DNA of 64,000 bases from NCBI GenBank assembly GCA_963740085.1, contig CAVUCU010000007.1:192001-256000 (forward strand). The letters run 5' to 3'. This DNA is from Nitrospirota bacterium (GTDB lineage: Bacteria > Nitrospirota > UBA9217). Below the pieces are notes generated by a model that worked only from the letters and a program-made list of their open reading frames with translations, had not been told where the DNA came from and did no database searches. A program made the position numbers and the translations under genes. Below are positions 27,159-27,200 of this stretch, piece by piece (the stretch's first letter is position 1; each line of letters starts with the position of its first letter).

Positions 27159-27200
27159 TGTCTAAAAGCCTCGAAAGCTTTCCGAAAGTTTTTACCGACA
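27159..27200 (-). ncRNA. Candidate cis-regulatory RNA in nifH leader
   Basis: 42-nt element homologous to 13757-13798 at the same leader position. Confidence 0.45.

Follow-up and report, generated by a model that had tools for sequence, protein, structure and literature searches.

The window (the whole stretch of 64,000 nucleotides analysed here, from a Nitrospirota genome referred to as G000) carries nifH on its minus strand at positions 26262-27104 (Pfam Fer4_NifH, 3e-129). A sigma-54 (-24/-12) promoter, TGGCAC-N5-TTGCT, is located upstream of the gene at 27221-27236 (-), and if transcription starts about 12 nt past the -12 GC the nifH transcript would have a 5' leader comprising positions 27105-27210 (-). 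The 42-nt string that the original prediction had put forward as a nitrogen-regulatory leader RNA is the exact reverse complement of positions 27159-27200 and would correspond to roughly +10 to +50 of this leader. Its assignment to the nifH 5' UTR is plausible, given the promoter on one side, the NifH reading frame on the other and a start site placed from the promoter. Within the 42 nt (-), between flanks that are not conserved, lies a hairpin here denoted P2 (27164-27182 (-)) with the sequence GAAAGCU-UUCGA-GGCUUUU, i.e. 7 bp including two G.U pairs and a pentaloop (35.4 bits, E = 2.7e-4 with the covariance model described below). Further downstream, positions 27126-27152 (-) (..AAGCAG AAAAAAUAU) align with the 3' arm of another hairpin (P3) and the A-rich tract of the porin leaders; P3 itself is degenerate here and reads C-UUCG-G in the leader alignment. 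The nifD gene is present as two overlapping ORFs, 25491-26189 and 24716-25639 (-), within 24716-26189. A type II secretion gene cluster is found directly upstream of the nif region at 28555-40541, and an IS110-family transposase is located further on at 51555-52835.

The canonical copy of P2, GAAAGCU-CCGGA-GGCUUUC, is located at 13762-13780 (-) and was matched by the covariance model with 44.9 bits (E = 1.3e-6). It is preceded by a hairpin P1 (13781-13802 (-), GAAGUUG-AUGCUGA-CAACUUU), whose sequence varies and which not all leaders possess, and followed by P3 (13731-13752 (-), CCUGC..GCAGG) and an A-rich tract, AUAAAAUCA, at 13722-13730, with no U-tract. A sigma-54 promoter, TGGCAT-N5-TTGCA, lies upstream at 13818-13833 (-). 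The first gene past the leader encodes a BBP2/OmpL-like porin (12560-13702 (-); Pfam BBP2, 6e-78), followed by amtB (10889-12553 (-)), which according to tblastn and the ORF list is readable only across three frames (frameshifts), and by glnK, encoding P-II (10535-10873 (-); Pfam P-II, 3e-34). Direct reading of the 42-nt stretch against the copy at 13763-13787 gives the predicted 22 identical core positions with one gap, and the pattern CTTTCG(N0-1)AAAGC-N7-GCTTT, common to both copies, is found at two places in the window and in no shuffle out of 100. The split nifD and the three-frame amtB are either assembly frameshifts or real pseudogenes, and if the breaks are real, nitrogen fixation by this genome may be lost. 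The region 2655-10873 is rich in nitrogen-uptake genes and contains three amtB loci. Four genes of the P-II family are found below 11 kb (including 7477-7815, 9501-9953 with a C-terminal extension, and 10535-10873) and one more at 18021-18437, and a PAS histidine kinase is encoded at 493-1602 with an adjoining ORF cut by the end of the window.

When whole leaders were aligned with MAFFT and folded with RNAalifold, P2 was the sole structure recovered. The conserved unit is a 7-bp stem with a pentaloop, GAAAGCU-YNNGA-RGCUUUY, or, when a form with 8 bp is included, a single hairpin of 19-21 nt with the arms GAAAG(N)CU and RG(N)CUUUY and the pentaloop YNNGA. The AAAGCU/GGCUUU pairing that had been offered as an alternative fold is therefore the actual conserved structure, i.e. 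the P2 helix seen in the porin leaders of relatives. The elements around it fared less well. The outer stems UGUC/GACA and UGAU/AUCA are literally present in the two copies of the window and are not kept in orthologues: UGUUG stands opposite CAUCA (G003) or CAUUA (G004) in porin leaders of the same genus, and the nifH leader of G001 lacks GUC/GAC. The difference between the two outer stems had been read as compensatory; as it separates two paralogous copies and the orthologues drop the stem, this reading is not supported. Of the two mini-hairpins, UUU-CGG-AAA borrows the 5' arm of P2 and varies in its upstream half (AAUUUAC, GCUGUAC and ACUUAA elsewhere), and CU-UUCG-AG is private to this nifH copy.

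Among 64 genomes of the Nitrospirota family to which the window belongs, 41 have P2, in 43 leaders altogether and usually once per genome. A covariance model consisting of P2 and its 8-nt flanks, built from 7 sequences and used at a cut-off of E<=0.1, matched 29 of the 64 genomes, and a pattern combining the promoter with GAARG-N9-11-CTTTY matched 39, with a single match for the reversed control pattern; the total of 41 was reached by adding G024 (from the model) and G018. In a scan of 151 genomes of the phylum 11 of the 27 sampled family members matched, and the three weak matches among the 124 genomes outside the family (E 0.009-0.05) were all in coding-like sequence without a promoter. A sigma-54 promoter (GGCA-N-TTGC) was present upstream of P2 in 30/30 model matches and in 11/11 further pattern matches. 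P2 starts 24-51 nt past the -12 element and ends 48-80 nt before the start codon (42 leaders), which is preceded by a strong Shine-Dalgarno sequence. The first gene past P2 encodes a BBP2 porin in 22 cases, a protein of about 249 aa (omp249) in 16 and NifH in 3, with 2 cut by a contig end, so that the stable home of P2 is the leader of porin/omp249-amtB-glnK operons (38/43 instances); in G008, for example, amtB and glnK come after the gene for the 249-aa protein. The omp249 protein (L119 4209-4985 (-) and 15 other loci) has a signal-peptide-like start and heads amtB-glnK in place of the BBP2 porin. No Pfam family was matched by it, and its nearest ESM Atlas clusters are unnamed or auto-labelled "outer membrane channel", which is a lead only. 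A third match in G000 to the strict DNA pattern that the two copies of the window have in common (C7:66080-66103; L001 1501-1524, minus strand) was rejected, as it is intergenic, has no sigma-54 promoter and no model match at E<=0.1 and lies next to an ORF without a Pfam family; it is probably a chance match or a relic.

The nifH-leader copy is confined to 3 genomes and is degenerate or absent in the other nifH leaders of the family. The suggested co-ordination of nitrogenase with ammonium uptake would hold for a few genomes of one genus and not elsewhere. Over P2, the 3' arm of P3 and the A-rich tract, the porin leaders can be aligned with the nifH leaders of G000 and G004, so the leader was copied as a module. 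P2 has been lost with the promoter kept in G069 and G021 and is degenerate in the porin leader of G001 and the nifH leader of G003. P2 is dispensable in the lineages that lost it, in keeping with an accessory layer of control. A metagenome scan in which nothing but the promoter and the inner 10-mer was prescribed and the outer arms were left free gave at least 119 stretches; a porin or omp249 was found downstream in 18 of the 80 loci read among them, and at least five further outer pairs were present in 17 of these 18 as compared to 0 of the other 62. The scan yielded no new outer-arm sequences, which indicates that the stem sequence itself is under selection.

Some other features of the nifH loci in the family are recorded here. 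In G001 the ORF past the nifH leader (L121 5125-5943 (-)) consists of NifH residues 1-128 fused to the C-terminal part of homocitrate synthase, implying that the whole nif cluster between nifH and nifV has been deleted, and the porin and amtB come directly after the fusion ORF. NifH is 99-100% identical between the window genome and genomes of other genera in the family (G013, G022; L005, L006, L007), and the nifH upstream regions of G013 and G022 are unrelated to that of the window, with leaders of about 35 nt that lack P2. Nearly identical proteins behind unrelated leaders suggest that nif clusters have been transferred or have recombined.

The sigma-54 promoter pattern occurs four times in the window, always on the minus strand, as compared to 0.14 expected occurrences. 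A long leader with P2 follows two of the four; the other two (4072-4087 and 9368-9383) head amtB genes and have short leaders. Alignment of the P2-bearing promoters revealed a UAS-like palindrome, TTTTnATCA..TGATTAAAA, together with an IHF-like site, and similar motifs were seen by eye upstream of both P2-less amtB promoters of the window. The palindrome (approximately TTTTnATCA-N-TGATTAAAA) sits roughly 100-130 nt upstream and the IHF-like site reads AATCAAnnnnTTR; these motifs are located at 13900-13960, 27330-27400, 9440-9520 and 4180-4200 (-) in the window and in the upstream flanks of L079-L108. They are probably binding sites for a master activator and for IHF, respectively, and P2 resembles neither. 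P2 marks a subset of promoters that are probably under one common activator, and upstream motifs common to promoters of which only two in four carry P2 are as expected for a second control tier. No candidate regulator gene was found in the genome-wide list of sigma-54-like promoters, and the Pfam annotation of the window contains no RNA-binding protein near the operons.

Based on these observations we propose that P2 is a cis-regulatory RNA hairpin in the 5' leaders of sigma-54-dependent nitrogen-starvation operons of one Nitrospirota family, with its main home before porin- or omp249-amtB-glnK, and that in a few genomes of the genus to which the window belongs a copy of the whole module was placed before nifH. 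P2 would most likely serve as the operator of a trans-acting factor (probably a protein) that recognises its sequence. Once transcription has been initiated, this factor would affect translation or the stability of the mRNA and not intrinsic termination, and P2 would provide a subset of the promoters under a common activator with a second checkpoint. Recognition by such a factor is suggested by the combination of a stem and loop that are fixed across genera next to rapidly diverging flanks, a constant position within the leader and the fact that the module was used again at nifH. The conservation, the context, the pairing pattern and the lack of the known candidate regulators are observed, and both the binding of the factor and its mode of action are presumed from this pattern, and we assign the reading as a whole a probability of about 50%.

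A partner-free explanation is that P2, together with P1 and P3, merely shapes the fold of the leader in cis, for instance by keeping its pyrimidine-rich arms (CUCC, CUUUC) off the Shine-Dalgarno sequence or by shielding the mRNA from RNases. Either variant is, even when the two are taken jointly, unlikely. P1 precedes P2 in part of the leaders (mean z -0.82; 14/41 below -1) and a GC-rich, stable P3 follows it in most (mean z -1.44; 25/41 below -1), both hairpins being too poorly alignable for pair counts and hence judged by energy z-scores, and many leaders have an A-rich tract such as AAUAAAAU past P3. Besides the stable P3, it speaks for this explanation that P2 is part of the minimum-free-energy fold of most leaders (forcing it leaves the energy unchanged in 29/41), and the predicted accessibility of the Shine-Dalgarno sequence has a mean of 0.67 with P2 forced as compared to 0.58 and 0.55 with one or the other arm blocked (41 leaders). 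There is also a precedent in Anabaena, where a stabilising 5' stem-loop precedes nifH. However, the difference in accessibility is a small one that varies among leaders and exists as a prediction only, and by eye no consistent complementary partner of the P2 arms was found near the Shine-Dalgarno sequence, with suggestive cases in G024, G074 and genus g12. Moreover, leader folding alone explains neither why the stem and loop of P2 are fixed across genera when P1 and P3 drift in sequence or go missing, nor why the same sequence was installed at nifH. Neither leader of the window contains a terminator-like site or a U-tract, and a T-rich tail past a hairpin was found in 1 of 42 leaders. A block with the consensus GCA(R)(K)GAAGUUG, which overlaps the 5' arm of P1, is conserved at the presumed 5' end of most porin and omp249 leaders (e.g. 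13795-13812, minus strand). A small leader ORF past the GGAGG of P2, readable by eye in three leaders of the same genus, is not conserved elsewhere and was rejected.

Operation of P2 as RNA was assessed from the pattern of substitutions in the stem. Standard pairs occupy 272 of 273 cells (99.6%) and a single cell is broken; this level was reached in 0 of 500 shuffles, and pairing fell to 32-74% when the partner was slid. Among 39 distinct rows, which represent related sequences, the A-U of pair 4 has become G.U in 9 rows that span several genera; it is invariably the A on the 5' arm that is replaced by G, and no row has the converse change on the 3' arm. Pair 1 has changed from G-C to G.U in 2 rows and the closing pair from U.G to U-A in 3, and one double change from C-G to U-A was found in the 7-bp form (in G024). 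True double substitutions are few; a higher covariation count (4 pairs, 17 cells) depends on aligning the two stem lengths on their loops. The 8-bp stem has one base inserted in each arm and occurs in 8 family genomes from four genera, the inserted pair being G.U in six of them (G015, G018, G051-G054) and A-U in two (G012, G014). The helix is thus kept through sequence change, by substitutions to G.U or U-A, by the double change and by a paired insertion. If the motif were read antisense, 52 G.U cells would become C.A mismatches and about 81% would pair. The nifH copies have differing loops (e.g. UUCGA and CGUGA), so a factor that reads the loop would need only the terminal GA.

The original prediction had named a palindromic DNA operator as its alternative, and P2 could indeed be read as GAAAGC-N7-GCTTTC, a site for a dimeric repressor that blocks elongation or escape from the open complex just downstream of the sigma-54 promoter. 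The element is a near-palindrome of 19 bp whose two half-sites hardly vary and are retained in the nifH copies with a different spacer. Leader folding energies are unremarkable (z +1.1, +1.2, -0.1 and -1.0), and a precedent exists in methanogens, where NrpR operators lie immediately past nif or glnA promoters. In addition, a fixed stem sequence is unusual in protein-bound RNA hairpins and also fits a DNA site or alternative pairings. On the other hand, nearly all substitutions are of a type that keeps the RNA paired on the sense strand, with an asymmetry between the arms, and in the 8-bp form the distance between the half-sites is larger by 2 bp, a shift that is no obstacle to a helix and usually is one to a dimeric DNA-binding protein. 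The central 7 bp are asymmetric, and their orientation to transcription is constant in all copies, the paralogous nifH copies included. NrpR (PF01995) gave no match in G000 in a search that found it in two methanogen controls, and, as noted above, P2 is unlike the upstream activator sites. The G.U-keeping changes and the pair inserted on both arms favour an RNA helix, and we infer from them that P2 acts as RNA; a DNA operator, which the near-palindrome makes a serious rival, is considered quite unlikely.

A metabolite sensor is harder to reconcile with the data. The original prediction had left the choice between a riboswitch-like and a protein-binding element, and of these the latter, i.e. 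the operator for a trans-acting factor, is the reading preferred here. The position of P2 in leaders of nitrogen genes would suit a small riboswitch for nitrogen metabolites (e.g. glutamine or 2-oxoglutarate), and riboswitches of very small size are known. However, the conserved part is a single small hairpin of 19-21 nt with a fixed stem; no junction, bulge or partner for a pseudoknot was seen to be kept, the hairpins on either side vary in sequence or are absent, and no expression platform was seen in the leaders, given the results on terminator-like sites and T-rich tails above. The suggested comparison with Rfam returned no match at gathering score over the whole window, and at E<=10 the leaders gave noise only (10.8-14.9 bits to unrelated families), glutamine riboswitches not being among the matches. 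These results make a riboswitch very improbable, and together with the single pentaloop hairpin they bear out the earlier view that the element belongs neither to the glnA riboswitches nor to the dual hexaloops of the ANTAR type.

An antitermination target of an ANTAR protein of the GnfR type would follow the same logic as in Geobacter, where a leader element is common to a sigma-54-dependent nitrogen subset including nifH and amtB/glnK (PMC2995071), but it can be practically discounted since ANTAR (PF03861) was found neither in G000 (98.5% complete) nor in 8 further genomes of that genus by a search that scored 67-82 bits in 10/64 genomes of the family, no leader contains the Geobacter motif CAGGCAANGGCGCC (its 4 occurrences in the window at <=2 mismatches equal chance, 19/100 shuffles reaching 4), no terminator-like site is present, and there is one hairpin with a pentaloop instead of two with hexaloops. 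Five of the ANTAR-positive genomes (G012, G015, G054, G067, G079) are among the 41 that have P2.

The data support P2 as a real and conserved leader element that is tied to nitrogen genes and previously uncatalogued; neither the 19-mer nor a similar motif was found in the literature searched. With a well-defined motif and a narrow taxonomic range, P2 looks like a leader hairpin for second-tier control of nitrogen genes. A more specific version of the trans-acting-factor reading, which we put forward tentatively, is that P2 is bound by a novel nitrogen-responsive RNA-binding regulator, neither ANTAR nor CsrA. It would act past initiation at sigma-54 promoters and gate how the mRNAs for ammonium uptake, and in some genomes those for nitrogenase, are translated or how stable they are.

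Nitrogenase and high-affinity ammonium uptake are costly, and many bacteria stack several layers of control on them. To our knowledge, control of these genes after initiation is documented in few systems only. Examples are ANTAR/GnfR in Geobacter, small RNAs in Pseudomonas and Methanosarcina and glutamine riboswitches in cyanobacteria. Nitrospirota are reported among sediment diazotrophs. In this uncultured family of the phylum a compact RNA element marks a subset of sigma-54 operons in a genome in which ANTAR, CsrA and NrpR were not found. P2 is small enough to be used directly as bait, which makes the regulator testable, and with about 60 instances in one invariant genomic context it is a candidate for an Rfam-type family.

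Several known systems resemble P2 in part. NrpR operators, palindromic DNA sites at methanogen nif and glnA promoters, are similar in that a palindrome lies near the start of nif or ammonium-assimilation transcripts, and they differ in that the variation of P2 fits RNA pairing rather than a DNA site of fixed spacing and that the protein was not found in the genome. Hairpins bound by CsrA/RsmA carry GGA in the loop. By eye, GGA is also present in the P2 loop of nearly all porin/omp249 copies (all but G063), with a second GGA in the Shine-Dalgarno sequence 50-70 nt downstream; unlike CsrA sites, two of the three nifH copies lack GGA, and CsrA (PF02599) had no match in G000 in a search that was positive for E. 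coli, B. subtilis and T. maritima. Hfq is present in G000 and discriminates between none of the readings. The canonical hfq is found at C1:342377-342562, and two adjacent Hfq-like domains are encoded at G000:C3:109463-109839, one with an in-frame TAG between. The glutamine riboswitches, which we take to be the glnA RNA (RF01739) and glutamine-II (RF01704), are likewise cis-acting RNAs in leaders of nitrogen-assimilation genes, but they belong to another phylum, were not matched at E<=10 and have an E-loop/pseudoknot architecture that P2 lacks. ANTAR target RNAs of the EutV, NasR and AmiR type consist of two tandem hairpins with hexaloops. They have in common with P2 that small hairpins are placed in nitrogen-related leaders, those of the ANTAR type being read by a protein, and they are distinguished from it by having two such hairpins, whereas P2 is one conserved hairpin with a loop of 5 nt (7 if the U.G pair is open) between variable flanking hairpins.

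The closest counterpart in design is the GnfK/GnfR system of Geobacter sulfurreducens, in which, according to Ueki and Lovley (2010), a master enhancer-binding protein drives sigma-54 promoters and a common element is present in the transcribed leader of a subset of them (nifH, amtB, glnK) (PMC2995071). The parts are different, the motif being CAGGCAANGGCGCC in Geobacter and GAAAGCUCCGGAGGCUUUC here, and with neither a terminator hairpin with a U-tract nor an ANTAR protein found in the present genome, so that P2 failed to group with GnfK/GnfR on every feature tested. The likeness lies in the two-tier arrangement itself, i.e. an element common to a subset of sigma-54-dependent nitrogen leaders (PMC2995071). 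If P2 is indeed bound by a novel regulator as tentatively suggested above, the Nitrospirota family would possess a second, independently evolved two-tier nitrogen circuit, analogous to that formed by GnfL/M and GnfK/R in Geobacter and assembled from different parts.
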